This document shows positions 3,488 to 55,795 of a stretch of DNA of 64,000 nucleotides, piece after piece; position 1 is the stretch's first letter, and every line of letters starts with the position of its first letter. Source of the stretch: Mobula hypostoma (lineage: Eukaryota); NCBI RefSeq assembly GCF_963921235.1, contig NC_086097.1:4650001-4714000 (forward strand), written 5' to 3'. The notes beneath the pieces were generated by a model. It was given only the letters and a program-made list of their open reading frames with translations, did not search any database and was not told the origin of the DNA. The position numbers and the translations under genes are program-made.

Positions 3488-3871
<384 letters not shown>

Positions 3872-12489: not shown

Positions 12490-12740
12490 CTAACACAGAA
12501 AAAGAAAAGCACTGAAATGTGATTTAACATCACAATAAACATCAAAAACATTTTAACCTTGAGAGTCCTGATCTTTTCATTTTATGATTCAAGCATCTTC
12601 ACAACCACGGTTAATGTTAGTGTGTCATGGTAGTGTAGGAATTGGCAGGACACTATTACAGCTCAGGGCATTGAAAAGTTTGGAGTTCAATTCTGCCACT
12701 GTCTCTAAGGAGTTTGTACATTCTCCACGTAACCATATAG

Positions 12741-13687
12741 CAGTGGTCCCCAACCACCGGGCTGCGGACTGGTACTGGGCCGCAAAGCATGTGCTACCGG
12801 GCCGCGAGGAAACGATGATTTGGCGATATGGAACGATATGAGTCAGCTGTACCTTTCCTCATTCCCTGTCACACACTGTTGAACTTGAAATAACCTACCA
12901 AATGACACATAAAACCTAAAATAACACTAACATATAGTAAAAGCAGGAATGATATGATAAATACACAGCCTATATAAAGTAGAAATAATGTATGTACAGT
13001 GTAGTTTCACTTAACAGAATTGGGAAGATTAAGCCAAAACCGATTTGTAGAAAAAAAAATTGGCACATCACGCATGAGCACACTGGTGCCCGCGCAAGGC
13101 TTCATGGTCATGGCAGTCTTTCTCGGGGTAAACACAAGTGTCCCGTATTTGACTGCTACTTTTGTCCCTTATTTGGGAGTGAGAAAGCTGGCAACCCTAA
13201 TTGAACAACCACCCCCCACCCCCCACCCCGGGTCGGCCAGTCCACAAGATTAAGGGAGCTAGGGCTTTACTCTTTGGAGAGAAAGAGGATGAGAGGAGAC
13301 ATGATAGAGGTATACAAGATATTAAGAGGAATAGATAGAGTGGATAGCCAGCACCTCTTCCCCAGGGCACCACTGCTCAATACAAGAGGACATGGCTTTA
13401 AGGTGAGGGGTGGGAAGTTCAAGGGGGATATTAGAGGAAGGTTTTTTACTCAGAGAGTGGTTGGTGCGTGGAATGCACTGCCTGAGTCAGTGGTGGAGGC
13501 AGATACACTAGTGAAGTTTAAGAGACTACTAGACAGGTATATGGAGGAATCTAAGGTGGGGGCTTATATGGGAGGCAGGGTTTGAGGGTTGGCACAACAT
13601 TGTGGGCCGAAGGGCCCGTACTGTGCTGTACTATTCTATTGTCAATATTAAACCAGTCCGCAGTGCAAAAAAGGTTGGGGACCCCCG
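12741..13687. mobile_element. hAT (Charlie-like) non-autonomous DNA transposon carrying a CR1 3' fragment (about 13250-13640)
   Basis: TIRs CAGTGGTCCCCAACC and GGTTGGGGACCCCCG; 8-bp TSD CCATATAG at 12733-12740 and 13688-13695. Confidence 0.88.
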
Positions 13688-13759
13688 CCATATAGGTTCC
13701 CTTTGGGTGCTCCGGTTTGTTAATTGGTGGAAATAATTGGGAATACGTGTAGCTCAGCT

Positions 13760-14056
13760 AGTTGATGGTTCGGTTCAGTTGTTCTCCAATCTTGGCAATT
13801 TACTTACAAATGATTTTGTCACCATACAAGGAGACACCATCAGTGCGCTGTTGATTGTGGTGTGTCCTCCGAATGCTTGGCCTTTGTATACTTTTCAATC
13901 ACTTGATCGGTTGCCATTTCAGAAACTATAGGTATATAAAGGCCAAGCATTCGGAGGACACACCACAACTAGCAATGCGCTGATGATGTCTCCTCATATG
14001 GTGATGAAACGTTTGCAAGTAAATTGCCAAGATTAGAGAGGAACTCAAGCCAACGA
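13760..14056. mobile_element. Second Penelope-like inverted terminal repeat, with a hammerhead motif at 13977-14017
   Basis: Imperfect inverted arms of about 125 bp; plus arm GCG-CTGATGA-TGTCTCC..GGTGAT-GAAAC-GTT-TGC. Confidence 0.6.
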
Positions 14057-15307
14057 GATTAAATGGTCACCATAAATTGTCCTGCAATTCAGTTAGTATT
14101 AAATAGGTGAGCTGCTGGGTGGTGAGACTCGTTGGCCCTGTTGCGCGCGGGGTACAGATAAGTAGTGGGTATCAAACAAATAGATCTCGTATGTATAAGG
14201 GATATAGGAGTACACAAAAGGAATAAATCAGGGAGGCAAGATTAGGGTGTGAGATAGCATTCACAGATAAGGTAAAGAGGAATCCTGGGAGATTCTGTAA
14301 GTACATGAAGATTAGTGTGGTTGCCTACTTGTAGGATGGGTCCCCATAAAGATCAATGAGATTGTCTACTTATGGGATGGGTGCCCATAAGGATCAGTGC
14401 AATTGTCTACTTATGGGATGGGTCCCCATAAAGATGAGATTGGTTGTCTACTTGTGGAGCCATGGGAGATGGGCTAACTCTTAAATGGGTACTACTTGTA
14501 TGTATTTATTGTGGAGCAGACCATTAAGCATCACAAACATCACAAATTTAGGGTAAGACACATACTTAGCTGCTTATTTGGGACAACTCTTAAAGAACAT
14601 AAACTAATTGAGGAAATTGCTGTGATTTCCTTTGTTTATTTGGAACACTATAGCTTAATTGGGACAGGATACTTTTGTTGAACAGTTTCTAACTAGCATC
14701 AGATGCGTGCATTTGTGTGGCCATTAGACACTACAGCATGCTTGCAGCCATCAGCTTTTTTAATAGTGTCAGTTGTGTGTACTTGTGCTCAAAAAGCAGT
14801 GATTTTTGTCTCTGATAGTTGGTGAGAAATAAGTAGTAAGACAATTCAGAACGGTTTTGCTCACTGCAGTTTCACTACATCAACAGGTTAGGAAGTGCCA
14901 AGAATTTGAAGGTATCGACAATCATCTTGAATGTTATAATGAAAATGAAGACTTGCAGGATGTAATTGCCCAAAGCCTTTATAAAGGCACTCTATTATCT
15001 ACACTAGGCATCTGCACTGATTTTGTTCTTTTACAATCAAAAGAACACGGCAGGAACACTGAATTAATACACCTGTCGATAACTATTAGAAACTAATACA
15101 CAACTTTATAGTACTGTAGTAGTATTGATGGTGTTCCAATTTGTTCTGTATTTCATTTAAATACATAATTTGTTACTCAGTTATATGGTAGTTTATCTTT
15201 TTTATACCATTTTAACAATATCTAAGAAACTTTGCCTAATTGGGACAGCCACTTAATTAGACCAAAATGTATTGGTCCCCATGTGTCTTATCTATGTTTG
15301 TACTTAC

Positions 15308-15463
15308 GACGTCATATTGCCATTAACGTAGTTCTGGTTGAGTATTCGAGCCCAACACCCTCCTCCTACGTTATTATTGACAGTACTGTAGTCCTCAGAT
15401 GACCATAGCTTCTTGCCTGTCTTCCTAGCATTGCTGCTTGAAATAGTTCCAGGATAATGGGCT
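15308..15463 (-). CDS. GALC: GALC exon 8 (156 nt), [51 protein letters not shown](S); contains the nucleophile Glu (SSED)
   Basis: [13 protein letters not shown] and ARILNQNY motifs; acceptor ccatag|A, donor TC|gtaagt; phase 2/2. Confidence 0.97.
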
Positions 15464-16521
15464 CTATGGAATGAAACAGGATGTTCATAATAAATACAAA
15501 ATGCATTTCATTTTTTAAACAACGTGCATTTATATCATACATTTAATACAGCAAAAGATCACCAACTGATAATAAAAAGAAATAAAAAAAATGCATATTT
15601 TGACATCAGGGAGGAGATACAGAAGCGAAAAGGCACAAACTCAATGATTCAGGCAGAGAGACTGCAATATGATTTTATTTATTTGTTTTAATTTTATTTT
15701 ATTTAGAGATAAGAGTTAGAACAGGCCCTTTGAGCTGCTCTGCCCAGCAACCCACCTATCTAACCCTAACCTAATCACAGGGTAATTTACAATGACCAAT
15801 TAACCTACTAATCGGTACATCTTTGAACCGTGGGATGAAACCCAAGCACCCGGAGGAAACTGACATGTTGACAGAGATGACATACACACTGCTTACAAAA
15901 GACTTCTTCACTCAGAGGATCGTGAAAGTATGGGATGAGCTGCCCGCGCAAGTGTCACATTCAAGCTGAATTTCAATGTTTATGAGATATTTGGGTAGGT
16001 ACGTGAATGGTAGGGGTATGGAGGGCTATGGTCTGGGTGTAAGTTGATGAGAGGAGGCAGTTTAAATGGTTCAGGATTGACTCGATGGGCCGAAAAGCTG
16101 CTTCTGAGCTGCATTTTTCTATGACTCTATGATGTTAGAATTGAGCTCTGAACTCTGATGCCTCGAGCTGTAACGATGTCACACTAACCGCTATGCTAAT
16201 GTGGCACCATTGAGACAATGATATCACAGTTGTGAGATTTAGTAATTTTACAGAAACGTCACTAAGTTACAGAAAAAGCTAGATGGTTGCAAATTGGTAA
16301 CTGCAATAGCAAATGACAAGGAACGAGTGATATAGAGGAAGAAAGAGGAATATGCACAGATAATGCTACAAGGAAATTATGTGAAAGTGGCAGTTATGAC
16401 AGGTAGGGAGAGGCAAAGCAGGCACATAAACGAGACAAACAAGATGTTTGGGGTAATGATCCAGAACACAAATCCATTCATGGAGACAGCAGCTAAACAA
16501 TTCAAATTTGTGAATTACATA

Positions 16522-17060
16522 CAGTGGATTCTGGTTAATTGGGCCAACAGTTATTCAGGGCAGCTGTTTGTTTGGGACCACTGTTAAAGAACAAAAACAA
16601 AATTGAGAAAAACAGATGGGATTCCCTTCATTTATTTGGGACACAATGCCACTCATTTAGGACGGGAGAGTTTCTGAACCGTTAGTCATACGCATTTGTG
16701 TGGACACCACAATGTGCTTGGAGCAATCAATTTTTTCCAATAGCGTCAGTTGCATGTGTTGTGCTCAAAAAGCAGTGATTTTTGTCACTGGTAGTCGGTG
16801 AGAAATAAGCAGTAAGACAATTCAGAACGGTTTTGCTCAAAACGGTTTAAAGCATCCAGGCTTGGAGATGCCAGAAATGGCTGGGAGTGAAAATGAAATG
16901 GCTTCATTACCTCAACAAGTTAGGAACTATGAAGGGATTGACAATAATCCTGAATGTTACAATGACAATGAATTTTGGAAGATGCAATCATCAAAAATAT
17001 TGTATGAAGTTAGTCCATTATCTGCGCAAAGGTGTCTGCGCTGATTTTGTTCATTTACAG
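16522..17060 (+). mobile_element. Tigger/pogo-like non-autonomous DNA element; related copies at about 14560-15290 and 26070-26625
   Basis: TA|CAGTGGATTCTGGTTAATTGGG terminus; shared core AAAAAGCAGTGATTTTTGTC..GAGAAATAAGCAGTAAGACAATTCAGAAC in three copies. Confidence 0.6.
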
Positions 17061-19517
17061 ACGAGCCGGGTAGCAGGGTGAAGATACATCTCTACCAAAG
17101 GAGGTTTAAGGCGCTCCTTCCCTCCGCTAGCCTGCAGGTCACTCTTGGGCGAGGTGTCGCATCTGCTTACCCACACCACCCGCCCCCACCCCGATCAGGG
17201 TCATGTGAAGCCATGGGAGCAGCTGGTTCATATCATAAGCCCTGATTATGTGATCACTGACACCAGGCAGACAATCTCTGAAGAGTATTGATAATGGCTG
17301 GGGTCACCCGTCTTCTAAAGACACTGCCCAGAAGAAGGCAATAGCAAACCACTTCTGTAGAAAAAATTTGCCACGACCATTCATGGTCACAGAAAAGCTA
17401 TGATCACCCATGTCATACGGCTCTTCGACCACATCCTGACCCAGACCCGCTACCACAGCCACATCTCCTTCCTGGGAACGTGTCACCTACCTGCCTTCTC
17501 CTTCCCACCCTCCCCCACTTTCTTTAGAGGTCCCCTGCCCCCTCACTCTCCAGTTCTGATGAAGGGTCTCAGCCCTAAACGTTGACTGATCGTTTCCATG
17601 GATGCTGCCCGACCTGCTGAGTTCCTCCAGCGTGTTGTGTGTGTTGCGTTCACAGGTTAGTTGACGTGTATGTATTTCCAATTAATTAATTATTTCAAAT
17701 CTCAACATTGAAACAGCTATTGCTATGCCTAGTCTTTCAGATGAAGATGATGTAGCCACTGTAACATACACAAAATTCTGAGGAACTCAGCAAGTCAGGC
17801 AGCATCTATGGAAAGAAATAAAGAGCCAACATTTTAGGATGAGAACCTTTCTCTTGGCTGAAATGTTGACTGTTTATTTCTTTCCATAGATCTTGCCTGA
17901 CCACCTGAGTTCCCCCGGCATTCTGTATGCATTACTCTGGATTTACAGTATCTGCAGAATCTCGCATGTTTAAGGTGAACCATTGCTGCTCTGGGATTCA
18001 ATGGTGACACATCTTAAAAGAAAGCATCATTGGGGCAGCACAGTAGCACGGTGGTCAGCAATACCAGAGACCCAGGGTTCAATTCCCACTGTCTGTAAGG
18101 AGTTTGGATGCTCTTCCCGTGACCGTGTGGGTTTACACTGGGTGCTCTGCTTTCCTCCCACAGTCCAAGGATGGGCCTGTATTCACTAGAATTCAGAAGA
18201 ATGAGGGGGTGACATCGAAACCTATTGAATGGTGAATGGCCTTGATAGAGGGGATGTGGAGAGGATGTTTCCTATTGTGGGACAGTCTAAGACCAGAGGA
18301 ACACACCCTCAGAATAGAGGGGCATCCTTTTAGAATGGAGATGAGGAGGAATTTCTTTAGCCAGAGAGTGGTGAATCTGTGGAATTCTTTGCCACAGAAT
18401 CTGTGGAGGCCAAATCTTTATATATATTTAAGGCAGAAGTTGATAGATTTGTGATTGTTCCGGGCATGAAGGGATACAGGGAGAAGACCAGGAGATTGGG
18501 GCTGAGCAGAAAATTGGATCAGCCATGATGAAATAGCCAAATGGCCTATTTCTGCTTTATGGCCTTATGGTTTTAACCTGAGCTTAATCACGGGATAACT
18601 TACAATGACCAATTAACTTACTAATTGGTGCATCTGAGTTGCAAAGCAAAAGGGAATAGTAATGGAACAAATGAAGAAGTAAAAGATGGTGTTAAGTGAC
18701 AAGTATGGGAATAACAGAACCATGCTATCATTTCTATTCTCCCCATCCCAATTTATCTGCATCAGTCCCTGGAATACACTGCCTGGGGTGGTGGTAGATG
18801 CAGATACATTCGGGACTTTTAAGAGACGTTTAGATAGGCAGGTGAATGTGAGGAAAATAGAGGGATATAGACATAATGTAGGCAAAAGGGATTAGTTTAC
18901 TTTGCCATTTGATTACTAATTTAATCTGTTCAGTACAACACTGTGAGCTGAAGAGCCTGTTCTGTGTGGTACTGTTCTATGTTCCTGAATAGACTTTCAA
19001 GCAGGGGCTACCGATCTGTTTTATGCCATGGAGCCTTACCTTCTACTGATGGTAAGGAATAAATTACAGGAGTACATTTCTGACCTTGCCATAAAACTGT
19101 TTGTACAATTGTAACTACAGTTCTTACATGTTGTTATTTCAACATGAGTACCTCTGATTGTTTTTTCTTCTGTTTAGATAAAACCATCAATCAGCAGTAT
19201 TTACATATTACACTAATGTCCTGATCTGCTGAATATCCCCTGCATTTGCTACGTTTTCAAAAAATTCTTAAATACTTGAATTCAATTTTATTTTTTAAAT
19301 TAACTAAGGCCCCTCTGTAAAAATTACTTTCATCTCTGGAAAAAAAATGAACAATGCAAATTTTATGTTTTTCGATACTATCCAAGAGCAACTTTACTTA
19401 CAGAACATTTTTCATTTAGATGAAGTAGTTCAAATAGCTTTACAATGGGATAAAAGTACAAATGTGAAAATAAAAATGTAAATAAAAGACAAAAAGAGTT
19501 AGTTAAAAGGTTAAATA

Positions 19518-20724
19518 CAGTGTCGTGTAAAAGTATTCAAACCCCAAACCATTCCCCCCGCCAAATGAGTCTTACAACCAGGAATTTTGGTCAATTTAAC
19601 TGAGAATCTTTATTTGAGAATCACATGCTCTTCCCCACCAACACCACCACCAAGAGTAGAGCCAAAAAAAACAAGGAAAATTGTAAAGCATGAAAAACTA
19701 AAAATTCAAAACCTGAAACATCAGCAGTTTAAAAGTATTCATCCCCCTTTGCTCAGTACTTTGATAAACCACCCTCACAGCTATTACAGCCAGTAGTCCT
19801 TTTGGACAAGTCTCTATCAGCTTTACACAATATGATGGAGCAAGATTTGCCCATTCCTCCTTGTAAAATTGCTCGAGTTGTGCCAGGTTAGTAGGAGAGC
19901 AGTGGTGGCCAACAATCCGAGGTCTTGCCAAAGACGTTCAATCAGATTAATGTCAGGACCCCGAATGGGCCACTCAAAGACATCACTTTTCATCATTTGA
20001 AGCCACTAAAGGACTGCTCTAGCAGCGTTCTCTTGGGTTGTTGTTCTGCTGAAAGACGATCTTCCTCCCCAGTTTAAGCTTTCAGCCAGAGGCGAGCAGG
20101 ATTTTTATCCAGGATCTCTCTGTATTTAGCATCTTCCCATCAATCCTGACCAGATTTTCAGTCCCTGCTGCTAAACAGCATCACTACGGCCTGAGGTGGC
20201 CTCCGCCATACTTTACGGTAGTGATGGTGTAACTGAGCTGATGCAATGTTAGATTTACGCCACATTTACCACAAAAAAAAAGCATATCCTTGCCCATAAA
20301 GACTTTGCAAAGCATAACTTAGAAGACACTGTAAAGATGTGGAAGGAGGAATTGTGATCAAATGAGACTAAAGCGGAACTTCTTGTCCTCAACACCAAGC
20401 GGTACGTGTCGTGTTTTTGGCAAAGCTAATAGATTCTTATCCAAAAGACTACTGATTTTAACAACTGTGAGAAGTGGGTCAACTAAGTACTGAGCTGTGC
20501 ATATGCTTCACAGTTGAAAACTTTTGAACTGCTGACATTTCAGTTTTTTAGTTTTTCATGCTTTACAATTTTCCGTTTTCTTGGACTCTACAGTGAAAAA
20601 AGGAGCACGTGAGTAACTTTATTTCACAAATAAAAATTCTCAGTTAAATTGACCAAAATCTCTGGTTGTAATACTTATTTATGTGAACAAAGGGTTAGGG
20701 GCTGCATACTTTTACAAGGCAGTA
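19518..20724. mobile_element. Degenerate Tc1-like transposon with long TIRs and an internal inversion
   Basis: TA|CAGTGTCGTGTAAAAGTATTCA...TGCATACTTTTACAAGGCAGTA|TA; Tc1 C-terminus (PTNLAQLEQFYKEEWANL) on minus, transposase pieces on plus at 20290-20490. Confidence 0.8.
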
Positions 20725-20726
20725 TA

Positions 20727-21082
20727 AATTGGTTTTGAGATGGTGCTTAAAAGCATTAACTGAGTCTGCATCCCTTATAGTTTTAGGTATTGAGTTCCAC
20801 AGTTTAGGAGCGTAGTTTCATAAAGCAGACCTGCCAGTTATCTTTCAATTTAAGAGAAGGGCAGAAGACGACCTGAGAGTTTGAGCAGGATTATAAAACA
20901 AAAATGATTCTGTGATGTACTCGGTCCCAGTTCATTGAGAGCTTTAAAATCAAGTAAAAGAACTTTAAATTCAATTCTGAAAGATACAGGAAGCCACATC
21001 AGAGTTGCTAGGTTGGGAGTGATAGGTTCCCTCAACCTGGTCTGAGATAAGAGTCTAGCAGCGACGTTCTGAATGAGTTTGA
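20727..21082 (-). mobile_element. L2 LINE 3' fragment (a similar 3' end at about 58010-58310, +)
   Basis: REPITPNLATLMWLPVSFRIEFKVLLLDFKALN resembles the L2 ORF2 C-terminus (HITP.L..LHWLPV..RI.FK). Confidence 0.8.
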
Positions 21083-21109
21083 GAATGAATGGCAGGAAGA
21101 AATGCCTAC

Positions 21110-21237
21110 CCTATGATGTCGACCACATCACTGAGCTCAGTATGAAGCACATACCAAGATATCGGTTCCCAAAGATTATCGCTGGCTATGATTTTCACCT
21201 GCTCTAGACCCATTTTGTCCAGGGTATCTCTCAGCAG
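21110..21237 (-). CDS. GALC: GALC exon 7b (128 nt), [42 protein letters not shown](G)
   Basis: Contains [11 protein letters not shown] as in mammalian GALC exon 7; acceptor ttatgccaag|CTG with U-rich tract and upstream ctaat, donor ATAGG|gtaggc; phase 0/2. Confidence 0.92.
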
Positions 21238-23569
21238 CTTGGCATAAAAAAATACAAAATTAGAGAAAATATTAGCATTTTAAACATCAATGTGCATTTG
21301 CAATTAAAATTAAGAGTGAAGAAAATGTGTCACAAGGCCTATATAGAATGGATGTTGAAAGGAGGCTTCCAATAGTGAGGGAGTCGAGGACCAGAGCAGA
21401 CATCCTCAGAATGCAGGGGATGTCCATTCAGAACAGAGATGAGGAGGAATTTCCTCACAGTAGAGGGGTGTCCATTGAGGACAGAGATGAGGAGGAATTT
21501 CCTCAGAGTAGAGGGTGTCCATTGAGAACAGAGATGAGGAAGACTTTCTTCAGCCAGAGGGTGGGTAACCTGTGAAATTTGTTGCCATGGATGGCTGTGG
21601 AGGCCAAGTCATTGAGTACATTTTAAGTAGAGGCTGGTAGGTTCTTGATTAGTCAGTGTGTCAAAGGTTACAGGGAGAAGACAAGAGAAGACATAGCATT
21701 GTGGGCTGAAGGGCCTGTAGTTTTTCTATGTTCTAATGGGGTTGAGAGGAATAATAAATAACCATGTTGGGACAGCAGAGTACACCCGATGGGCCGAATG
21801 GTCTAATTTTCTCCCATGTCATATGGTCTCCAAGACAGAATTGAGGGTACCTGAAGACAATGTTTCAGATATTGGAAACACTTTTAAAAATGTGACAAAT
21901 AAAACTAAAGACTGCTTGGTGGTGTAAAAATTTTCTTCAGTGCATGGCACTCTGTAATCCGTCCTGCATTGACATCTGGATTTCCTACTCCAAATTTCAA
22001 AGAAAATTGCTTGCTGATACATTTAATGGGAGAATGAATACAGGTCAAGCCACGCTTTCATACAACAGAATACAGACGACAGAAACAATAAATTGCTTCA
22101 AATAAATTGAGGTTTAAATGTGGGTGACAGTGAAGACAGTTCCTAATGTTCAAGCGAAAAAAATTAGCAAGCTCACATTTCACAAGCGACCATTTCGCAA
22201 CATCAACATGAAAACGAAAGGAAGAGAAAGGACAAGTTTTCATTTACTGAAAAATAATTCCAAATGCAATGCCTTAGCAACAATTTATGGCATTAAAAAG
22301 AACCTTCCTGTATATGGAGCAATACACACAAAATGCTGGAGAAACTCAGCAGGTCAAGCACCATCAATGGAAAAGAATAAACAGTCGACGTTTTGGGCCG
22401 AGACCCTTTTCTAAGATGTACCGGTTAGGTTAATTGGTGATTGTAAATTGTTTTGTGATTAGGCTAGGTGGGTTCCTGGGTTTTAGGCTCATTGGGCCAG
22501 AAAGGCGTGCTCCGTGCTGTATCTCTAAAAATAAATCATACCAAGAAATTGGTGCAAATCTTGAATTTGGAGCTACTTGTCAAAAATGGTGATCACAGAA
22601 CTATCTATCTTTACACATAAAAACACAAGATTCTGCAGATGCAGGAAATCCGGAACACATATAAAATGCTGGAGAAACTCAGCAGGTCAGGCAGCATCTA
22701 TGGAAATGAGTTAACAGTCAACATTTCAGGCCAAGACCCCTCCTCAGGACTGGAATGGAAGGGGGAAGATACCAGATTAAGAAGGTGGGGGGGGGGAGAG
22801 AGAGGACAAGCTAGAAGGGGATGGCTGAAGCCAGGTGGGTGGGAGACGGAGAATGGGAATGAAGTAAAAAGCTGGGAGGTGATAGGTGGAATAGGCAAAG
22901 GACTGAAAAAGGAGGAATCTGGCAGGAGAAGAGAGTGGACCATGAAGGAAATGAAATGAGGAGGGGCACCAGGAGGAGGTGATAGGCAGGTGAGAGGCCA
23001 GAGTGGCCGCTGTAAGTGGAGTTGCCAAACTTAGTGGTTTATAACATTTGAGTTTAAACTGGACTAAACTTTGCTGAATGGAATTGGTGAAACAATTATA
23101 ATGTAGTACAGCATGGAAACATATGTCTTAGCAAAAGGAATGGTCCCTTTGCCCCCACTCTGCATGTCAAAGCCATGTACAGTATTGTGTGCTGTCCACT
23201 TATTATGGGGACGTCACTTGAGTGTGCGGGGGGGGGGGTAAAAGCGAAGGGAATAAGTTACGTATTCACGCTTCTTTCAAGGCAGTTTGTAGCTTGGGGC
23301 CAGTGAAGGTCACATCTTTGCTGACCGCTGAGATAAAGCTCAATAAAGCTCAGTTGTATGTTTGCTAATTGCTAATAAAGGATTGAATAAAGGGCTTGTC
23401 TTTTGGAGCAATCATTAGAGCTAGGGGTGAGTCAAGGGGTAACAACTCCATGTGGGGTTGCAGGCTGGTAGCAATGTGTTTTGATTTTGGATCAGTTTTA
23501 CTGCTACACTGCATTTAATAAGGTCATCATTAATCTGACTGTAACTTCAATTCCTCATTTCTGTCTACT

Positions 23570-24900
23570 TCAATAGATTAGATAAGATTCAACTTTATTG
23601 TCATTGGGCCGAGTACAGATGCAAAGCCAATGAAATGCAGTTCGCATCTGACCAGAAATACAAAGAATAGTGTTATTTACAAAATATCTGCGAATAAAAA
23701 GTGCTATAGCACACAAATATAAAAGTACTGAGACAGTACAATATGGGTGCAATACTGCTTAGCGCTGTGACATGAGGTTCAGCAGCATCACAGCCTCAGG
23801 GAAGAAGCTCTTCCTGTGCCTGCTGGTGCGGGAGCGGAGGCTCCTGTAGCACCTACCGGATGGGAGGAGAGTAAAAAGTCCATGGTTAGGGTGAGATGCA
23901 TCCTTGATAATGCTTTTCGCTCTGCCCAGGCAGCGTATATGGTAGATGTTCTCAATGGTGGGCAATTGGGTGTCGATAATCCGCTGGGCAGTTTTCATCA
24001 CATGCTGGAGTGCTTCACGGTCTGATACGGGACAATTGCCATACCACACTAGAGATGCAGTTGGTGAGTATGCTCTCAATGGTACAGCGGTAAAAGTCCG
24101 TCAGTATCCTGGGACAGAGGTGAGCTTTCTTGATGCTCCGCAGGAAATAAAGACGCTGTTGCGCCTTTTTGATCAGGATGGAGGAGTTCAGGGAGCAGGT
24201 GAGATCCTCGGAAATGTGGATACCAAGGAATTTGAAGCTTGATACACGTTTCAGTACAGCTCCATTGATGTAGATGGAGACATGAGTGTGGCTCCTAGCA
24301 TGCCTGAAGTCCACAATGATCTCCTTGGTCTTCTGGGTGCTAAGGGCCAGGTTGTTGTCGGCATACCACGCGGCCAGGTGCTGGACCTCGTCCCTGTAGG
24401 CCATCTCATTGTCCCCTCTGATCAGGCCAACCACTGTGGTGTTGTCTGTGAACTTGATTATGGAGTTAGAACCATGTACAGGAACGCAGTCATAGGTGAA
24501 AAGGGAATACAGAAGAGGGCTCAGCACACAGCCTTGAGGCACGCCGGTGTTCAGGGTGAGAGTGGAGGAGGAGAGGTTGTCTAACTTAACTGATTGGGGT
24601 CTGTTAGTCAGAAAGTCCAAGGTCCGACTGCAGAGGGATGAGTTGATACCAAGCTGGCGAAGTTTGGTGATCAGCTTGGAGGGGATCACAGTATTGAATG
24701 CCGAACTAAAGTCAATGAACAGCATTCTGACGTAAGAGTTGGGGCTGTCCAGGTGGGTCAGGGCAGCGTGAAGTGCCGTGGAGATGGCGTCCTCTGTTGA
24801 CCTGTTGGTGCGATAGACAAATTGATGGGGGTCCAGGGTAGTGGGCAGATTGGTTCTATCACATCTGAAATCCTGTCTCTCAAAGCATTTTGCAATCATC
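23570..24900 (-). mobile_element. Rex1/Babar LINE, 5'-truncated, RT largely open
   Basis: ORF 24015..24899(-) carries RT motifs ([33 protein letters not shown]); ORF 23759..24079 is the C-terminus; 3' tail ACAATAAAGTTGAATC. Confidence 0.92.
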
Positions 24901-27900
24901 CTTATTTACCAGGAGATCATTTATAGAGTACAGCACAGAAACATGCCCTTTTATAGAGTACAGCACAGAAACATGCCAAACTATTAATCTGCCTACTCCC
25001 ATCAACCTGCACTTGGCCCATACCCCTCCAATCCATGTACCTATCCAAATTTCCCTTACCTGGCCTGCTGAGTTCCTCCAGCATTTTGTGCGTGTTGCTT
25101 GGATTTCCAGCATCTGCAGATTTTCTCTCGTCTTTAACATATGTGATTGCTAACCTTTCCTTGTATTGATAACAGGGCATCGATCTGAGTCATTAACTCC
25201 GCTCTTCTCTCCACAGATGCTGCCTGACCTTATCCCAATTGGCAACCCTCTCATGTCAAATCCAAAATTACTGAGTTTACTGTCAGATGCAGAGGGTGAC
25301 AGGTCACAGTTAAAATAGAAATCAGTTTTTATTTCTAAAGTTCAGTGCACGCAATAACAAAGTACAAAGTACAAAGTACGTATACTGTATACAGTCTCGA
25401 GATTCCCCTCCTTACAGGCAGCCATGAGACAAAGAAACTCAACAGAACCCATTAAAGGAGACTGTCAAACACCCAATGTACACAAAAAACAAATTGTGCA
25501 AATCACAAAAAAAAACAAATAACATTCAGAACTAAAGTTCATAAAAGAGAGTTCACAGCCACAAAGCCCGCCCAGGAGTCCATTAGTTGCAGGCCACCCA
25601 CAGCCTCGGTTCACTGTAGAAATGAGTGTACACATCATCGCGCTGTGAGGTGAACACCCATCAACTCTATTCTCTGGCTCCTGAGCTTAAATCGGCCAAG
25701 CACCAGCTCCTTCCTCATTCTCCGGCCCAGCCCCAGACTCTGCCTCACTTCTGATCGGCCACTTCAATTCAGCTTCAAGCCAGCAATATTGTGGGACTGT
25801 CTGTTAACTGGCTGTGACTGTGACCACCCCAGTGATCATCCTCCAAATCCTACCCACCTTCAAAAAGCAGCCAGACCTAGTACCAGGCTCCTTCCAACGT
25901 ATTCCCCCGTTTCCTCTCTGATCAGCTGGCTATATCTTTGTTCTTCCTCTGATCATTTTTATGCTCCATTCAAAGGTGAACCTGAGCTGGTGGATTCAGC
26001 AAAGTTTGACTGAACTTTGAAGGATGAACAAATATCAAACCGGCTAGTTCCTAATAGTTATCGATGGCAGAGTTCATCCAATGTATGCTGTGTTCTTTTG
26101 ATTAAATTTAAATGAACAAAATCAGCGCAGACACCTAGTGCAGATAACAGACTGCCTTCACACAATGTCTATACAATATAATGCCTCAGATAGTGCTCTG
26201 GATGATTGCATCTTCCAATTCCTCATTTTCATTGTAACATTCAAGGTGATTCAATACCTTTAAATTTTTCATAGTTCCTAACTTCAAGTAGTGAAATTGT
26301 TTCATTTTCACTCCCATCCATTTTCTGCCACCTCCAAGCCGGAATGTTTGAAACCGTAGTGAGCAAAACAGTTCAGAATTGTCTTACTGCTTATTTCTCG
26401 CCAACTATCAGTGACAAAAATCACTGCTTTTTGAACACAAACACATGCAACTGATGCTGTTTAAAACTGTTCTCTCTAAGCAAAGTATAGCGTGAAACAG
26501 CTACACAAGCACACACGACTGACGCTAGTTTGAAGCAGTCTTTTGTCCCAATTAAGCGGCGTAGTATTCCAAATAAATGAAGCATCCCAAAGAAATAAAT
26601 GGCAAATTTCTCAATTAGCTTTTGTTCTTTTCATACATACAGTACATGTTGAGAAGGAATTTAGCCTATAAGTATAAATCAGCAACTATCTCTTTGGCCA
26701 AGTATCTTGTTTTGAATAGGAGCAACATATATATGATTCAGCTCAAATTGCAAGCCGTAATGTTGCCTCTGATATTTGTGCATCCACAGGCTGAAAGCTA
26801 CACATTTTTGATGGACTAGGAAACTGAAGAAGCATGTCAGGACTAGTTAAGAAGGTTTATAGGTTGTTTCAAGGAAAGAGTAAAGGAAACAAAAGATTAA
26901 AGGAGAAGAGCAATTTACTTGACTTAATTATCTGTAAAACTGTGTTATACTTTGACAACCCAGCATTTAAAAATGTGACTTCTTTCTCATCTTCCAGAAT
27001 CAGGCTTTTATACCACATTGGTTTTCATTTTATTTAGAGATACAGTGTGGCACAGTCCCTAATGAGCCACACCACCCAGCAACTCACCGATTTAACCCCA
27101 GCCTAATCACAGGACAATTTACAATGCCCAATTAAACTACTAACCTGTACGTCTTTGAACTGTGGGAAGAAACTGGAGCTCCCAGAGGGAAAACATGCAC
27201 TCCCGGAGAGGGAGTACAAACCTTTTACAGAGGATGCCGGAACTGAACTCTGAACTCTGAACTCTGACACCACTAGCTGTAATAGCGTGGCGCCAACCGC
27301 TATGCTGCTGGGGACGTTCATGTGTGTTGCGTCTAACCATTCTGTAGCCAGATCCCATTTCAGGAGTATTTCCAAGTGCAGATTAAAAGGCACTACATTC
27401 ACAGGCACATTCTAAACTTAAACTGGTCTGATGGCTATATTCAACTCAGTTCACTCTACACACCAAGCGTTTAACTAGATTGTCTATAGAGGGAGGTGAA
27501 AGGTTTTTTAATTCAAAGACACACCACTGAGACACTCCCTATGATTGTTTTCTTTAACAATCAACATGATTTTTCAACTGTTCATCCATCAACATAGTCC
27601 CTCCTCTCCCCACAAAAATAAACGTAAATCTGAAATACCCTTCTCCACACAGCTGATAAACCCAAAGGAACAGCAGAGACTAACACAATTTGGCACCAGC
27701 AGTATCACAGGAGTTGCCAATCAGTGTGGAACTCAACACAGAACTGTTTTAGGGACTCCAGTTCTGGAATTTTCCTTGGGGTTTACTCCTGAAGCTTTCC
27801 CCATGCGTGGGTATAGTTACTAGGCAGGAGACACTTGGGATCAGAGTTTTCTTTCTCCAGATGAGCTGTCAACCATGGCTGACAGGCCCATTTGCTTGAA

Positions 27901-28797
27901 GCAACTGGTTATAAGGCACCAGTATCCTGTCTTTACCCCTTCTGTCAGCAGAAATAGTTGAGCTGGGCTTAATAGCCAAATCACTCGTGAAAGCCAGGAA
28001 CCGGACTTGGTTTTCAGAGGCTATTTGAGAGGGTTCAAAGGAGGCTCATGAAAATGATTCCAGGATTAAAAGGCTTGCCATATGAGGATCATTTGATAGC
28101 TCTGGGCCTCCATTCACTGGAATTCAGAAGAATGAGGGTTGACCTTATTGAAACCTATCAAATAGTGAAAGGCCTTGACAGAGTAGATGTGGAAAGGATG
28201 TTTCCTTTGGTAGGGGAGTCTAAGACTCAGAATAGAGGGGCATCCATTTAGAATGGAGATAAGGAGGAATTTCTTTAGCTAGAGAGTGGTATATCTGTGG
28301 AATTTGTTGCCATCGGTGGCTGTGGCAGCCAAGCTATTGGGTACCATTAAGGCAGAGGTATATAGATTCTTGACTGGTCAGGGGATGAAGGATATGAGTA
28401 GGAGGCTGGAATTGGGGCTGAGAGGAAAAATGGATCAGCCATGATGATCAATTGGCCAAACAGCCTAATTCTGCTCCTACATCTTATGGATGCACTTGGG
28501 AGCATTTCACAGATAATTGGAGCTTATCCTCACTACCACCCCATGATAACATTTAGGAACCAGAAATACTTTTATAATAAAGGTAAAACATCGTAATACA
28601 GAAAATGAAACCAAAATCAATCTGTGCAAGATTTTCAATAAAGCAAGATAGCAAATACCCACAATACATAATAGTTCTTATTAAGATCCTTCATCATTTT
28701 GAAATCATTTTCTAATTAAAACTCTACTCTGGACAGCAAGCAAAGAACTTTTAGGAAGAGCTGGATTCTATAGTGCAATTTAGTCCCAAAAACTTAC

Positions 28798-28925
28798 CCT
28801 ATAATTTCAACTGCGTCACTTAAGTATGGGTCAACTATTAAATCATCTGCGATCCCCCAGTTTCCATCTGCAGCAATAATACCAACATCCTTTACACCAA
28901 CTTTATCCAGTAACTGGCGCAGTAC
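28798..28925 (-). CDS. GALC: GALC exon 7a (128 nt), VLRQLLDKVGVKDVGIIAADGNWGIADDLIVDPYLSDAVEII(G)
   Basis: Open frame homologous to GALC exon 7; acceptor tattgccaag|GTA, donor ATAGG|gtaagt; phase 0/2 bridges exons 6 and 8. Confidence 0.9.
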
Positions 28926-30599
28926 CTTGGCAATAGATAAAGACAAACATCACTCGACTAAAAATGGAATAGTAATGAAATAAAACCCCTGAAAGCTCTC
29001 TTTAATAAGGCCTGATACATGGGCAGACAGTGGGAGGGGACAAAACTTCAAAACTTAGTTCAAGGCAAAGAGGATCATTGGGATCCCTTACACACAGAGA
29101 TATTTATCAGCAGCGCTGTATAAACAAAGCCCTTAGCATTGTTATTCATTCCTCCCATCTATCAACAATCTACTTGACCCCCTACCGCCAGGCAGGAGGT
29201 ACCATAGCATTAGGACCAGAAGTGTTAGGATGGAGAACAACTTCTTCCCTCAGATCGTGAGACTACTGAACTCCCTGCCACCACCCAGGTCTCATCACGT
29301 ATGAAGCACCAGTATTGTTACACTATTTACTTTTTGACTTGTGTTGTAAATACACCTCATTATTCGTTAATTTAATTGCAGTAATATTACTTATCTGTTG
29401 AGTGTCCAAGTGTCTGCCTGTCTATTTGTGAGTTTTAAATACTGTGTTGTGCACCTTGGTCCAGAGGAACGTTGTTTCATTTGTCAGTATACATGTGTAT
29501 GGTTCCAAGGCTGTCAAGCCGAGGAGTGGTAGTGGGGACAAGCTCCCACTACCTAAAAGTGCTCCTCACGGCACGCGCCTCAAATAGCCTCTGACAACCA
29601 AGTCCAACTCCTGGCCTTCTCGTGTGGCTTAGCCTCTAAGCCGGGCGGAACTGTTTCTACTGACGGGAGAAGGGGCGAAGGCGGGTCCTGGTGCCTTAAA
29701 ACCAGTGCTTCGGGTAGATGGAGCTTGTCAGCCTGGGAAGGCAGTCCATCTAAGAGAGGGAAACTCTGAATTCAAACCTCCGCTGCCTTGCGGCCATACC
29801 CACTCATGGGAGAGGCTTCAGGAGTAAACCCTGAGGACAAATCCGGAGCTGGAGTCCCTAAGGCAACCCGACGTTGCCTTCAACCTCATTCTAGCAACTC
29901 CTGTGATGTCACTGGTGCCAAGCTGTATCAGCCCTTGCCCCCGTCTCTTGGACAGCATCGGTGGCGTGGAGACGGGAGACTTGCTGCTTGAGCAACTGCT
30001 GGTCTTCCATACAATGTTGCCCAGGCCTGCGCCCTGGAGAGACTGAAGCAAGACTTTCCAGGTGCAGATCCATGGTCTCGCGAGACTAATGGATACATGT
30101 GTATGATTGAGTGACAATAAACTTGAACTTGAAGGGAGATCACCACAGATAGAGGCAAAGGAAAACCAGGGCTACTTGGGAAGAAGGAATTAAGTCACAC
30201 AAGGTACCCTAAAAGGCTAAAGATTTTAATGAACATTTTTATCAATGCAATGGAGATGAAGATAAACCAATACTTCAAAAACTTAGAAAAAACAAGGGCA
30301 TTTCAGACCAAAGTTACCATAGCAAGTGTGGTAAGGGGAATTAAGGGTTATGGGGAAAAGGCAGGAGATGAGTCCATGGCCAGATCAGCCATAACCTTAC
30401 TGAGTGGCGGAGCAGGCTCGACGGGTCAGATGGCTGACTCCTACTTCTTAAGCTCTTATGTTCTTATGGAGCTGTCTGATATGAACGGCCACACTTTATC
30501 TGTTGCCAGCTACCATCCTATAACTTGGCAATTTTCCCAACATGCCCTGTGTTCTCAGCAGATGGTGGAAATCCAGAGCAACACATTTTTAAAGCAATT

Positions 30600-30770
30600 G
30601 GAATTTATAAGAGATATCAGTTTGTCTCCAGAGATGGAGAAAGGGAGGGAGATGTCAGAAACGGACCAAGTGAATTCAATGGCAGGTTGGAAGGTGGAGA
30701 CAAAGTTGATTAATTTGATGAGCTCAGCACAGGTGAAGGAAGTAGCACCAATGTAGTGGAGGAAAAGTAC
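30600..30770 (-). mobile_element. Penelope-like RT fragment
   Basis: LFLHYI..AELIKLINFVSTFQPAIEFTWSVSDISLPF resembles PLE RT (N.FHP.L.FT..S...LPFLD); adjacent to the same terminal-repeat family. Confidence 0.7.
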
Positions 30771-31329
30771 AATTTCCATTGATGCTGCTTGACCTGCTGA
30801 GACCCTCCAACATGTCCTGTTGCCTTCACAGGATGAATCCAATCCAGGTAATTACTCTTTGTTACATCCACTCTCCCCCTCATCACTTGCTATTTTTCAC
30901 ATTGATTTAGCTGTCACATTGATGATGGATTTGAGTCACTTACTGACCAGATTAGTTGGCCATGACATCTTTCCTCTTCTGAAGGACATCAGTGCATGAT
31001 TATCCTCATCTATTAGTTTCCTTCTTCAGCCCATTACCTCTTCGCCCTATCACCTCCCAGCTTCTTACTCATCCCCTCTCTCCAACCTTCCCCCTCACCT
31101 GGTCTCAACTGTCCCCTCGTTTGCCTCACCCCTTCTTATTCTGGCTTCGTCCCCCGTCCTTTCCAGTACAGATGAAGGATCTCAGCCCGAAACATCAAAA
31201 ATTCCCCTCCATAGATGGTGCCCGAGTTCCTCCAACATCTTATGTGAGCTGCTAAAGACTTCCAGCATCTGCAGTATATCTTGTGTTAATTAAATACTTC
31301 TTTTTCTTTTTAAAGACCAGAATTCATTA

Positions 31330-33995
31330 GACCATAAGCTGCAGGAACAGGGTTAGTCCATTCAGTCCATTGAGTCTGCACCAACATTTTCATTTTCATG
31401 CCTTCTCCCTGTAACCTTTGACACCCTGACTAAGCAAGGAACTATCAACCTCCGCTTTAAATATACTCAATGACTTGCCCTCCATAGCTGCCTGTGGCAA
31501 TAAATTCCAGAGAGTCTCTACCTTCTGCCTAAAGAAACTCCTCCTCATCTCTGTTCTAAATGGACGTCTCTCTAGTTTGAAGCTGTGCCCTCTGGTCCTA
31601 AACTCACCCACTATAGGAAACATCGTCCCCACATCCACTCTATCTAGGCCTTTCAATATTTGATACATTTCAATGAGATACAATCTCATTCTTCTAAACT
31701 CCAGTGGTACGGTCCTAGAGCCATCAAATGCTCCTCATGCATTAACCCTTTCATTCCTGCAATCATTCTCGTCAAACACCTCTGGACACTCTCCAATGCC
31801 AGCACAGCTTTTCATTAATAAGAGGCTCAAAACTGCTCACAATGCTCCAATGCCTTATAAAGTACCCTTGCTCTTATATTCTAGGCCTCTCCAAATGAAT
31901 ACTAACATCATATTTGCATTTATTACCACTGACTCAACCTGCAAGTTAAACTTTGCAGTTGTTTCTTGAATTTTCTCCATTTAGAAAATAGACTACAACT
32001 TTGTATCATGCATTTCCCTACACAAGATTCCATCTCCCACTTCTTTGCCTATTCTCTCAATTGGGCTAAGTTCTTCTGTAGCCTCTCTACTTCTTCAAAA
32101 CTGCCTGCCCCTCCATCTATCTTCATATCGTCTGCAAACTTTGCCACAAAGCCAATTCCATGATTCAAGTCACTGACACATAACGTAAAAAGGATCAGTC
32201 CCAACACAGACCCCTGTGGAACACCACTAGTCAACAGCAGCCAGCCAGTAAAGGATTCCCTTATTCCCACTCTTTGCCTCCTGCCAATCAGCCTCTGCTT
32301 TCTCCATGCTAGAATCTTTCCCGTAATACCATGGGCTCATAGCTTTTAAAGCAGCCACTTTGTCAAAGGCCTTCTGAAAATCCAAGTACACAACATCAAC
32401 CAATTCTCCTTTGTCTATCCTGCTTGTTATTTCGTCAAAGAATTCTAACAGATTTTTCAGGCAAGATTTTCCCTTGGACCATAGAACATAGAAGCAGAAT
32501 TAGTACAATTGGACCATCACATCTGCTCCGCCATTCAGTCATGGCTGATCCTGCCTTTTCCCCCTCCTCAGCCCCACTCCCCAGCCTTCTCCCCATAACC
32601 TTTGATGCCGTGTCCAATCAAGAACCTATCAAGTCCCCAACAACCTGGCCTCCACAGCTGCCTGTGGTAATAAATTCCATAAATTCACCACTCTCGGGTG
32701 AAAGAAATTTCTCCACATTTATTGTTTTAAATGACTCCCCTCTATCCTAGGCTGTGCCCTCTTGTCCTACACTCCCCCAGCATGGGACACATCCTTTCCA
32801 CATCGACTCTGCCTGGGTCTTTCAACATTCAAAAGGTTTCAAAAAGATCCCCCCTTCATTCTTCTAAATTCCAGCGAGTACAGACACAGAGTCATCAAAT
32901 GCTCCTCGTATGATAGCCCTTTCATTCCCAGAATCATCCTTGTGAAGCTCCTCTGAACCCTTTCCAATACCATTACATCTTTTCTTAGATGAAGAAGCCC
33001 AAAACTGTTCATAATACCCAAGGTGAGGCCTCACCAGTGCCTTATAAAGCCTCAGCATCACATTCCTGCTCTTGTATTCCAGATCTCTTGACATGAGTGC
33101 TACATTGCATTTGCCTTCCTCACCAACTCTACCTGCAAGTTAACCTTTAGTGTGTTCTGCACAAGGACTCCCAAGTCCCTATGCATTTTAGATTTTTGGA
33201 TTTTCTTCAAATCTGCAAATTTAATTCTACTACCAAAGTGCATGACAATGCATTTTCCAACATTGGATTTCATTTGCCATCCTCTTGCCCATTCTCCTAA
33301 TCTGTCTAAGTCCTTCTGCAGCCTACCTGTTTCCCCAACACTACCTGCCCCTCCACCAATCTATCTCCCTGAACTCCCTATGCAGAACCTTACCGCACAT
33401 CCTACCCATGTCACCGGTACCTACATTGACCACAACTTCTGGCCATTCATCTTCCTATTTGAAGTTGCTGAGGACTCGATCCGAGATATCCCGGACCCTG
33501 GCTCGCGGGAGGCAACATACCACCAGGGAATCTTGTTCTTGCCCACAGAACCTCCTGTCCATTCCTCTAACTAACGTATCCTATCTCCAGAGCCTCGTCT
33601 TCCACCTTCCCTTCTGAGTCACAGAAGCAGGCTCAGTGCCAGAGATCTGAACAGAGTGACTTTCCTCTGTTAGGTCATCCCACACCCCTCCCCCCCAGCA
33701 GTATCCAAAGTGATATACCTGTTGTTGAGGGGGATGGCTACAGGGCTACTCTGCACTCAGCTCTAAGGCAATATTGTTCTGTTCTGAGGCTGTGCCCTCT
33801 GGTCCTGGACTCTCTCATTATAGGAAACATCCTCTCCACATCCACTCTATCTAGGACTTCCAGCATTTGATAGGTTTCAATAAGATCCCCTCTCATTCTT
33901 CTAAACTCCGATGAGTACAGGCCCAGAGCCATCAAACACTCCTCATATGTTAACCTTTTCATTCCCAGAATCATTCTCGTGAACCAACTCTGGAT
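31330..33995 (-). mobile_element. Cluster of nested CR1 fragments
   Basis: SGVPQGSVLG, AKFADD, LYKALVRPHL and RMRGDLIETY peptides on minus. Confidence 0.85.
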
Positions 33996-34408
33996 CTTGA
34001 ATTACGTCAAATTATAGCAAATCAATGTATTCAGGTCAAAGAAAATCCACTTTCTTCACTCTTCACACATAAAAGCATTGCTGACCATAAACTCAGCATT
34101 ATTTGGTATTCTATGCCAAACTCTCTGTATTTCAGCTCTGTGGAGAATGAACGCAGAGGCAAAGTACAACACAGGGATGTTATTACACGGACAGTTCACT
34201 GGGTTTGAAATTTCAGGCACACATCTTTCCAAATGAATGAAACTTCTTCTCATATAATTCAATGAGGCAAAAATTAACATTGGAATACATAACGCACACT
34301 TCTGTAATACCTGACTTCAACAAAAACCAGGGACACATGTTAAAGATGAAGTAGGAACAAAAGCATCAAGAGCTCTTATAATTTCCCAAAGGAAACTGAA
34401 TGAAGATA

Positions 34409-35000
34409 CACTCAGCAGCCACTTCATTAGGTATGCCTGCTCATTAATGCAAATATCTAATTAGACAATCACGTGGCAGCAACTGAATGCATAAAAGCAT
34501 TGAAGAGGTTCAGTTGTTGTTCAGAACAAACATCAGAATGGGGAGGAAAAGTGACTTTGACCGTGGAATGATTGCTCGTGCCAGACGGGGTGGTTTAAGT
34601 AGCTCAGCAACTCCTGATCTCCAGGGATTGATTGATTGATTGATTTATTGACCGCGCGCATGCGCACGCTCTCTCTCTCTCACACACACACACAACAATC
34701 TGTATTGTTTATAGAGAATGGTGCGAGAAACAAAAAAACATCCAGTGAGCGGCAGTTCTGTGGGCAAAAACACCTTGTTGATGAAAGAGGTCAGAGGAAA
34801 ATAACCTGACTGGCTCAAGCCGACAGGAAGGTGACAGTAATTCAGATAACCACGTGTTACAACAGTGGTGTGCAGGAGAGTGTCTTTGAATGCACAACAC
34901 GTTGAACCTTGAAGTTATGGGCAATTGCAAAAGAACATCATGAACACATGCTTTTGAAGACCGCGTATGTAGACTCAGTGGTCACTTTCTTAAGTATAGG
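34409..35000 (+). mobile_element. Tc1-like 5' fragment with an internal microsatellite
   Basis: TA|CACTCAG..GCCACTT.ATTAGGTA end; DFDRGMI..ARRGGLS..TPDL resembles a Tc1 paired-like N-terminus. Confidence 0.6.
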
Positions 35001-35862
35001 AGAAAGTGAGTATAGTGCTGGACTTAATGTTACCACATTGTACTATCCTAAAATATAAAATTGGGTTATTGATTTCATATAATTAGTTTAAAGATGTTGC
35101 TTATTTAGAAACACTAGCATTTTAATGTTTTATCATACTGACGTTGATAAAAACCTTATGTTCTTGCCTCACCATGTAATGAAATCATTCAAAAATGTTT
35201 ACCATGTGAATTTAAATTTGTTTTTTTTTAAAAATGTTACATATAAAAATTAAATTGGAAATATGTTCAAAATATTTTTCGGCAGAAGTTATTCTTGGAA
35301 GGCCCTCCCCAACTCTCCTTAGTGCTTTAATTTCTTCCCCATACGCACAAGGTGCGTTAGTAGTGTAGCTGATGGCATGGGAAGTCAGGGTGAGCTGCTG
35401 GATATGACGTTGCTTCCCATGGTGGGAGAGTCCAGGACCAGAGGACACAACCTCAGAATAGAGGAACGTCCATTTAGAACAGAGATGAGGAGAAATTTCT
35501 TTAGCCAGAGGGTGGTTAATTCATGGAATTCATCGCCACATACGGCTGTAGAGGCCAAGTCATTGGGTATATCTAAAGCTGAGAGTGGTAGGTTCTTGAT
35601 TAGTCAGGCAGTCAATGCTTAAGGAGAATAGGCAGGAGAACGGGGTTGAGAGAGGAATGGATCAGCCATGATAGAATGGCGGAGCAGTCAATAGATAGAA
35701 TGGCCTAATTCTGCTCCCATGTCTTCTGTGGGAGAGAGCAGGTTACAAGACAATACGTGGGAAAACGGGACTGATAGGAGCACCCATAGCCAAATGACTT
35801 AATGGGCTGAACAGCCTTCTGTGTCATAAGAAAATAGGAGATAAAAACTATGTGAAACATAC

Positions 35863-35901
35863 CATGATGTACTTCTTGTCAAAGTGTCTTTCATTCCAAA
35901 T
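35863..35901 (-). CDS. GALC: GALC exon 6 (39 nt), IWNERHFDKKYIM; contains the acid/base Glu (WNE)
   Basis: Clan GH-A WNE motif; acceptor ctccaag|ATT, donor ATG|gtatgt; phase 0/0. Confidence 0.95.

Positions 35902-41343: not shown

Positions 41344-43881
<2,538 letters not shown>

Positions 43882-55693: not shown

Positions 55694-55795
<102 letters not shown>

Follow-up and report, generated by a model that had tools for sequence, protein, structure and literature searches.

The 64,000-nucleotide (nt) stretch of Mobula hypostoma DNA analysed in this study (contig NC_086097.1; hereafter the window) contains most of the 5' half of the Mobula GALC gene, which encodes galactocerebrosidase, a glycoside hydrolase of family GH59. 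Loss of GALC causes Krabbe disease. Exon 7 of this gene is very probably a mutually exclusive pair, 7a and 7b, that arose by an old duplication and yields two GALC isozymes. The two exons are neighbouring and homologous and equal in length and phase, each has its own splice sites, and one or the other is found in transcript-like contigs and annotated isoforms. In the proposed arrangement, two homologous exons of 128 nt would stand in tandem at the place of exon 7, and exactly one of them would enter each messenger RNA. A mutually exclusive exon pair had been proposed in a first-pass annotation of this DNA, and it is borne out by annotated isoforms, exon-exact contigs and frame arithmetic.

All GALC exons in the window lie on the reverse strand (-). 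Exon 6 (35863-35901, 39 nt), which encodes IWNERHFDKKYIM, was placed by tblastn and by refinement of its splice sites and boundaries. It carries the acid/base Glu of the WNE motif, which aligns with mouse E182, and it finishes on a codon boundary. The upstream alternative, exon 7a (28798-28925, 128 nt), has an acceptor ending ...TGCCAAG and the donor ATAGG/GTAAGT. Its translation, VLRQLLDKVGVKDVGIIAADGNWGIADDLIVDPYLSDAVEII(G), is open throughout. The intron between the alternatives (21238-28797, reverse strand, 7,560 nt) contains a reverse-transcriptase fragment of a long interspersed nuclear element (LINE) at 24015-24905 and repeats resembling short interspersed nuclear elements (SINE-like repeats). 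The downstream alternative, exon 7b (21110-21237, 128 nt), is of the mammalian type, and it has the acceptor ...TGCCAAG and the donor ATAGG/GTAGGC. It is likewise open with its final Gly codon split, and a pyrimidine-rich tract lies ahead of both 7a and 7b. Exon 8 (15308-15463, 156 nt, AHYPG...LWSSEDY) was placed by tblastn, splice refinement and contigs. Its first base is position three of the split Gly codon, and the nucleophile Glu of its SSED motif aligns with mouse E258. All of the inspected splice sites from exon 6 to exon 8 are GT-AG. Several statements of the first-pass annotation were reproduced at this level. The two open 128-nt exons between exons 6 and 8 were found again when coordinates and frames were re-read, and the refined boundaries with the split Gly codon agree with an exon 6 ending in phase 0 and an exon 8 starting in phase 2. 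The TGCCAAG acceptors and the ATAGG/GT exon ends were seen at each exon, and the alignment to mouse E182 and E258 agrees with the positions that had been claimed, exon 6 for the Glu of WNE and exon 8 for the nucleophile of SSED.

The length of 128 nt is not a multiple of three, and therefore the reading frame enforces exclusivity at the protein level. If both exons are included, the frame runs GGC TGC TGA and stops at nt 5-7 of 7b. If neither is included, a stop occurs 36 nt into exon 8. The earlier claim that using both exons or neither shifts the frame was correct, and stops were found in both cases. Since these stops are far upstream of later exon junctions, nonsense-mediated decay is expected to eliminate both-in and both-out products. 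Exclusion by steric hindrance or by spliceosome type can be set aside, because 7,560 nt of intron separate the two exons and all sites are GT-AG. Frame plus decay is the sole exclusion mechanism supported.

The surroundings of the exons contain 61 pairs of inverted repeats, which are transposon-like, and some of them bracket 7a. The bracketing SINE-like pairs are 21517-21689/31393-31565, 28036-28226/33802-33992 and 28227-28383/31424-31580 (157-191 nt, 73-80% complementary). Hypothetically, pairing of these SINE-like repeats in the pre-messenger RNA could loop out 7a.

The homology of the two exons was examined at the peptide and nucleotide levels. The peptides are identical at 18 of 42 positions (BLASTP, E 3e-9), or at 19 of 43 when the shared split Gly is counted, which is the ungapped match that had been reported before. 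At the nucleotide level 65 of 128 positions are identical, with 20/42, 30/42 and 13/42 at the first, second and third codon positions, respectively. Second positions are the most alike and third positions are near random. This pattern agrees with an old duplication under constraint at the protein level. When an exon 7 peptide profile was run on the six-frame translation of the window, two copies only were recovered (E 4e-25 and 8e-21; the next best was 2.6).

Both versions are present in protein databases. A search with the 7a peptide returned 46 matches, all of them GH59 galactocerebrosidases with an IIAAD-type segment, and the best was isoform X1 of M. birostris with 100% identity. The 7a peptide of the window is likewise that of M. 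hypostoma X2 (100%), and the 7b peptide is that of isoform X2 in M. birostris and of isoform X1 in M. hypostoma. RefSeq records with 7a and others with 7b exist for M. birostris, M. hypostoma, Hypanus, Hemitrygon, Amblyraja, Rhinoraja and Leucoraja. Seven of seven batoid isoform pairs of the same length have all of their 24-26 differences inside one span of 40-42 residues. The pairs of a snake (661/662 amino acids) and a caecilian (668/669 amino acids), whose 7b is one codon longer, were compared over the printed segment and not position by position; from WNE onwards this segment differs only in exon 7. A GenBank protein of Potamotrygon motoro carries 7a. Version 7a was also found in full-length open frames of Logan contigs of 2.2-2.8 kb from skate (P0077), frog (P0126, P0346, P0347) and cyprinid (P0322) clusters. 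Contigs of this length are too short to include the introns.

Further material came from transcript-like contigs of relatives of the window's species, which carry each exon free of its introns. A run search with exon 7a listed 22 runs, all of guessed RNA type or of no stated type, and the contigs of four of them (X2, X3, X6 and X19) were compared with positions 15300-35299 of the window. In X19 and X6, separate contigs of 183 nt coincide exactly with 21110-21238 and with 28798-28926, in both cases with their record positions 30-158. Among the rows listed, no piece of X2 or X3 falls on 7a or 7b. Each of them has 29 + 25 flanking letters, which diverge from the intron. Contigs of 1.2-2.8 kb touch the compared stretch at exon 8 only in all four runs (the X2 contig has 2775 nt), and the exon 8 contig starts four letters ahead of exon 8 in X19, X3 and X6. 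The length of the short contigs is that of a bubble in an assembly with k=31 (30 + 123 + 30 = 183), in which the two paths share a 30-nt upstream context and, on the other side, the common ATAGG followed by the first 25 letters of exon 8. The contig that closes such a bubble would begin with ATAGG. From this geometry we infer that 6-7a-8 and 6-7b-8 transcripts are present in two organisms. The contig depths were 147.4 for 7a and 66.2 for 7b in X6, and 8.5 and 20.9 in X19, values that are not usable for ranking the isoforms.

The age of the pair was addressed with a tree of 75 exon peptides over 44 columns. The 7a peptides (41 rows) form one clade with a Shimodaira-Hasegawa-like approximate likelihood ratio test (SH-aLRT) value of 94, and the 7b peptides (23 rows) form another with a value of 91. 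Each clade holds both chondrichthyans and osteichthyans. The duplication would predate the split between cartilaginous and bony vertebrates, with both copies kept under equal constraint since. This split took place over 400 million years ago. Among eight species with both exons (28 pairs), the 7a peptides have a mean pairwise identity of 0.705 and the 7b peptides one of 0.713. Both versions are equally constrained. Of the 43 columns aligned for 13 diverse 7a peptides, 20 are invariant. The exon tree and the equal conservation of the two versions uphold the proposal of an old duplication kept under selection.

The comparison with non-vertebrate GH59 proteins bears on which version is closer to the ancestral state. 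The 7a profile outscored the 7b profile on 117 of 142 non-vertebrate GH59 regions, and 106 of the 142 favoured 7a when both profiles were built from the same ten species. The Pfam GH59 model gave 24.6 bits for 7a and 20.0 for 7b. The tendency is that 7b would be the more derived copy and 7a the ancestral-like one; mammals apparently kept the derived one. The hagfish Eptatretus burgeri has a protein (P0165) that combines traits of 7a (VLRQ, VGII, W-x-I) and of 7b (ASD, D-x-EL). The 7a profile gave it 63 bits and the 7b profile 53. This protein could represent the pre-duplication state or one member of an unseen pair.

The distribution of 7a was surveyed with a profile built from the 13 diverse 7a peptides, which gave 202 protein matches, 120 of which were listed. 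Among the matches listed, 7a occurs in rays, skates, sharks, a chimaera, many teleosts, a sturgeon and a lungfish, and on the tetrapod side in frogs, caecilians, lizards, snakes, the tuatara and eight bird entries. Bird, sturgeon and frog clusters contain both 7a and 7b members. Like the batoids, sharks, chimaera, teleosts, sturgeon, lungfish, amphibians, squamates, tuatara and birds have the pair. Version 7a is not special to cartilaginous fish but is found across jawed vertebrates, birds included. No mammal was present among the 120 listed of the 202 matches, in a set of proteins clustered at 90%, which can hide isoforms. The mouse GALC segment matches 7b (chain positions 179-220), so that the mammalian enzyme is 7b-type as had been stated. 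The further claim that 7a is absent from mammalian GALC fits these protein clusters but is not proven by them.

In several ab initio models (P0004, P0009, P0022, P0090-P0098) from teleosts, pigeon, gecko and skink, the exon ends are trimmed in such a way that a single protein contains both 7a and 7b, and the order 7a then 7b is kept in all of these groups. Such fusion is a recurring annotation error that arises because of the exon pair, and the pair thus explains these faulty gene models. Version 7b has 43 codons (128 nt) in batoids and 44 in sharks, sturgeon, frogs, birds, the snake and the caecilian (proteins P0050-P0052, P0078, P0082). This difference would be a one-codon deletion of 7b in the ray lineage, with the frame class kept. 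A metagenome scan with the 7a profile gave one locus (L001, 10001-10125), a bird-type 7a exon encoding VLRQSLDRLGLRNIGIIAADGDWNISREMIVDPYLNDAIEVV at the end of a contig. Its acceptor is ...ttactaag/GTACT, and the DNA is presumably that of the host; the 7a exons of ray and bird both begin with GTACT. The contig has no sequence downstream of 7a, and the tandem arrangement is unreadable there. A partial 7b-type protein assigned to 'Lampetra planeri' (P0216) was rejected as lamprey evidence, because its segments match teleost GALC at 83-85% identity and it groups with teleost 7b. Judged by this similarity, it may be a teleost contaminant in the lamprey assembly.

Some observations weigh against a mutually exclusive pair of ancient origin. 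The connectivity 6-7a-8 and 6-7b-8 was inferred, since the flanking 29 + 25 letters are unassigned to exons and bridges need 31 letters. A rare 7a-7b joint may also be present, since the joint table has 2081 rows beyond those listed. The four runs were called RNA by guess only, and most of the isoforms in other species are Gnomon models and not cloned complementary DNAs. As to the ancestral likeness of 7a, the exon tree has 44 columns only, and for amphioxus the 7b profile gives the higher score (46.8 versus 37.3 bits). The hagfish joins neither clade of the tree. The automatic origin of most isoform records, together with the ab initio models in which both exons are erroneously joined, would also suit a quite different explanation, namely that one of the exons is either a pseudo-exon in decay or part of a misassembled paralogue and that the second isoform is an annotation artefact. 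This is extremely improbable. Exons 6 and 8 of a single gene enclose both 7a and 7b, which share one orientation, and the open frames and splice sites are intact in both. Exon-exact contigs cover both exons in the runs of two organisms. In addition, the fused models repeat the 7a-then-7b order in teleosts, pigeon and lizards.

In order to understand what the exon swap changes in the protein, the exon 7 segment was placed on mouse GALC, in whose structure the chain index plus 14 gives the residue number (E168 is E182 and E244 is E258). By this offset exon 7 covers mouse residues 192-235. From the usual layout of a TIM barrel, we take this segment to be the end of helix 4, strand 5, the loop that joins strand 5 to helix 5, helix 5 itself and the start of strand 6. 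A comparison of 98 distinct 7a peptides with 29 distinct 7b peptides gave the type-specific columns. Fixed differences are V in 7a versus L in 7b at position 1, S210 replaced by A in 7a, and N212 replaced by G in 7a. L213 and E/Q215 of 7b are variable in 7a, and P216 is deleted there. A PY versus xE pair ahead of the shared L227 also separates the types. The IIA-D motif, W214, L227 and G235 are shared, so that the buried strands are largely common. The most divergent loop reads S210-D-N-L-W-E215-P216 in 7b and A-D-G-x-W-x, one residue shorter, in 7a.

The catalytic glutamates are E182 and E258 according to the part of PMC4445328 available to us, which lists G48, T93, W135, N181, E182, E258, S261, W291, R380 and W524 as galactose contacts. 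None of the contacts in this list falls within 192-235. On the other hand, E215, by the offset the E of LWEP in 7b, is the site of the Krabbe mutation E215K. In the accessible portion of PMC5764952, the mutated GALC still folds, traffics and is active, and E215 is located on the surface beside the saposin A (SapA) site. As far as these two partial sources go, the exon swap remodels the rim beside the saposin A site and leaves the chemistry of hydrolysis alone. The two isozymes would have the catalytic glutamates, the galactose pocket and the other domains in common and would differ in a 43-residue segment of the barrel. The first-pass annotation had spoken of different loops near the active site. 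The segment between the two catalytic Glu residues does differ, but the loop adjoins the saposin A site and not the galactose pocket. A sequence search of the Protein Data Bank with the 7a peptide alone gave no match.

What the two isozymes do differently can be approached from the position of these changes. It is quite possible, though tentative, that they differ in the presentation of lipid substrate or activator protein and not in the chemistry of hydrolysis. The first-pass annotation had put forward substrate, pH or saposin preference as possible differences. The main difference might instead be one of stability, pH optimum, processing or trafficking, and the swapped segment does include two barrel strands and a helix through which the stability of the fold could be tuned. 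However, the strongest type-specific differences cluster in the surface loop 210-216 and not in the buried strands, and this loop borders the SapA site as far as it is described in the part of PMC5764952 at hand, so that such a reading is unlikely. It could also be argued that the pair is real and spliced but that the isozymes are equivalent, with 7a a redundant spare. The catalytic and sugar-binding residues are untouched, both versions fit the GH59 profile, and mammals apparently manage without 7a. A redundant exon would be expected to decay or to disappear often, yet 7a is present in every major non-mammalian jawed-vertebrate group sampled. The two versions form distinct clades with equally strong conservation since before the chondrichthyan-osteichthyan split, and the 20 invariant columns among 43 in the 13 diverse 7a peptides point the same way. 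Equivalence is thus quite improbable, and a difference in lipid or activator handling is retained as the working proposal.

Ostariophysan fishes offer a further lead. The records named 'galactocerebrosidase' from carp, goldfish, barb, milkfish, catfish and knifefish (P0155, P0141, P0160, P0121, P0150, P0120 and P0320) carry 7a only. In the 90% cluster of the carp 'Galactosylceramidase a', all six members that cover the segment are of the 7a type, and the other four, including the carp entry itself, are without the segment. The other three ostariophysan clusters examined are also 7a-type. Zebrafish has two genes, galca and galcb, which are equally expressed according to the available part of PMC12493051. 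The same partial text reports that a galcb knock-out removes more than 80% of the galactosylceramide (GalCer)-cleaving activity and that a galca knock-out removes none. As in the ray, there are two GALC proteins per animal, but they come from separate genes and not from alternative exons. A hypothesis is that the exon versions were partitioned into genes, galca being of the 7a type and galcb of the 7b type. The pair thereby offers a testable explanation for a zebrafish galca without measurable GalCer activity. The wider proposition, that 7a-GALC is an ancestral-type isozyme with a distinct lipid or activator specificity and that the ostariophysan galca/galcb partition follows from the exon pair, is somewhat doubtful. 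If it is true, the zebrafish knock-outs show that the 7a-type enzyme adds almost nothing to galactosylceramide hydrolysis and must act otherwise, and mammals lost a second GALC activity altogether. A full-length GALC tree including the ostariophysan 7a-only genes mirrors the species tree and does not show whether galca and galcb stem from the genome duplication of teleosts.

Pairs of this kind are known from other genes. Exons 9/10 of PKM and exons 5a/5b of SNAP25 are the classical vertebrate mutually exclusive pairs that arose from tandem exon duplication. There too, homologous neighbours of equal length are used one per transcript, and one segment of the protein is swapped. PKM is a metabolic enzyme, and the exon swap alters its regulation and not its catalysis. 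By analogy, PKM exons 9/10 may be regarded as the nearest counterpart among metabolic enzymes. GALC differs from both in gene and fold, and its 128-nt frame makes the both-in and both-out products nonsense.

To our knowledge, mammalian GALC genes have a single exon 7. Mammalian GALC (mouse structures 3ZR5 and 4CCC; the GALC-SapA complex in PMC5764952) is the same three-domain GH59 enzyme in its 7b version. All of the structural and enzymological knowledge of GALC comes from the 7b form. The RefSeq records GALC X1/X2 of Mobula and of other non-mammalian vertebrates contain the same pair as the window, as unnamed automatic isoform records. The pair is already annotated, including for Mobula, yet it is seemingly undescribed in the literature. 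No paper describing the GALC exon pair (its age, frame logic or structural position) was found, as judged by titles and the openings of abstracts. In the part of the main text available for the zebrafish paper PMC11002810, to which the search was confined, the words isoform and exon and words beginning with splic are absent. In the accessible part of PMC12493051, subfunctionalization, paralog and words beginning with duplicat are absent, the search being limited to these terms and not extended to exon or isoform.

The pair matters for several reasons. The structure, the docking of saposin A and the kinetics of GALC are known from the single mammalian form only, whereas most jawed vertebrates, including model birds, frogs and fish, keep a second version of a part of the catalytic barrel. 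The exon pair is a natural experiment on the poorly understood surface at E215 on the saposin side. Its interest is raised by the role of the enzyme in Krabbe disease, by the apparent loss in mammals and by the link to fish models.

The GALC portion of the window comprises exons 2-11 (661..62252, reverse strand), which were obtained by tblastn with Mobula GALC, junction refinement and spliced translation. Besides the exons described above, exon 2 was placed at about 62184-62252 and exon 11 at about 661-759, both with approximate outer ends. By tblastn and junction refinement, exon 3 was placed at 55711-55774, exon 4 at 52918-53031, exon 5 at 39450-39589, exon 9 at 12365-12489 and exon 10 at 3695-3822. 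Ten coding exons were placed in total by tblastn with full-length ray GALC, and exon 1 and the exons beyond 11 lie outside the window. Splicing of exons 2-11 with 7a gives 354 residues with no stop, of which 352 are identical to the 7a isoform of Mobula hypostoma and 348 to that of M. birostris. Membership of GH59 was confirmed by Pfam. The Mobula 7a and 7b isoforms match PF02057 at 410.8 and 404.4 bits, respectively, well over the cut-offs, and both also exceed the cut-offs for PF17387 and PF21708. Mobula GALC matched the mouse GALC chains with an E value of 1.4e-292 and has the same pair of catalytic Glu residues.

A CCAAG ending is common to the acceptors of exons 6, 7a and 7b (ctctccaag, attgccaag and tatgccaag; 35902-35906, 28926-28930 and 21238-21242, respectively), which is unusual for three neighbours. 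An Rfam scan of the window gave no match. The GALC introns contain transposon remains at 24015-24905 (-), 6702-7418 (-), 7647-8609 (+), 41703-42623 (-) and 60675-61415 (+). They include LINE reverse-transcriptase fragments (Pfam RVT_1), one of which is that of the 7a-7b intron, an endonuclease-reverse transcriptase fragment and a frame resembling open reading frame 1 of L1. A Tc1/mariner-type transposase frame with helix-turn-helix and DDE domains is also present in these introns.

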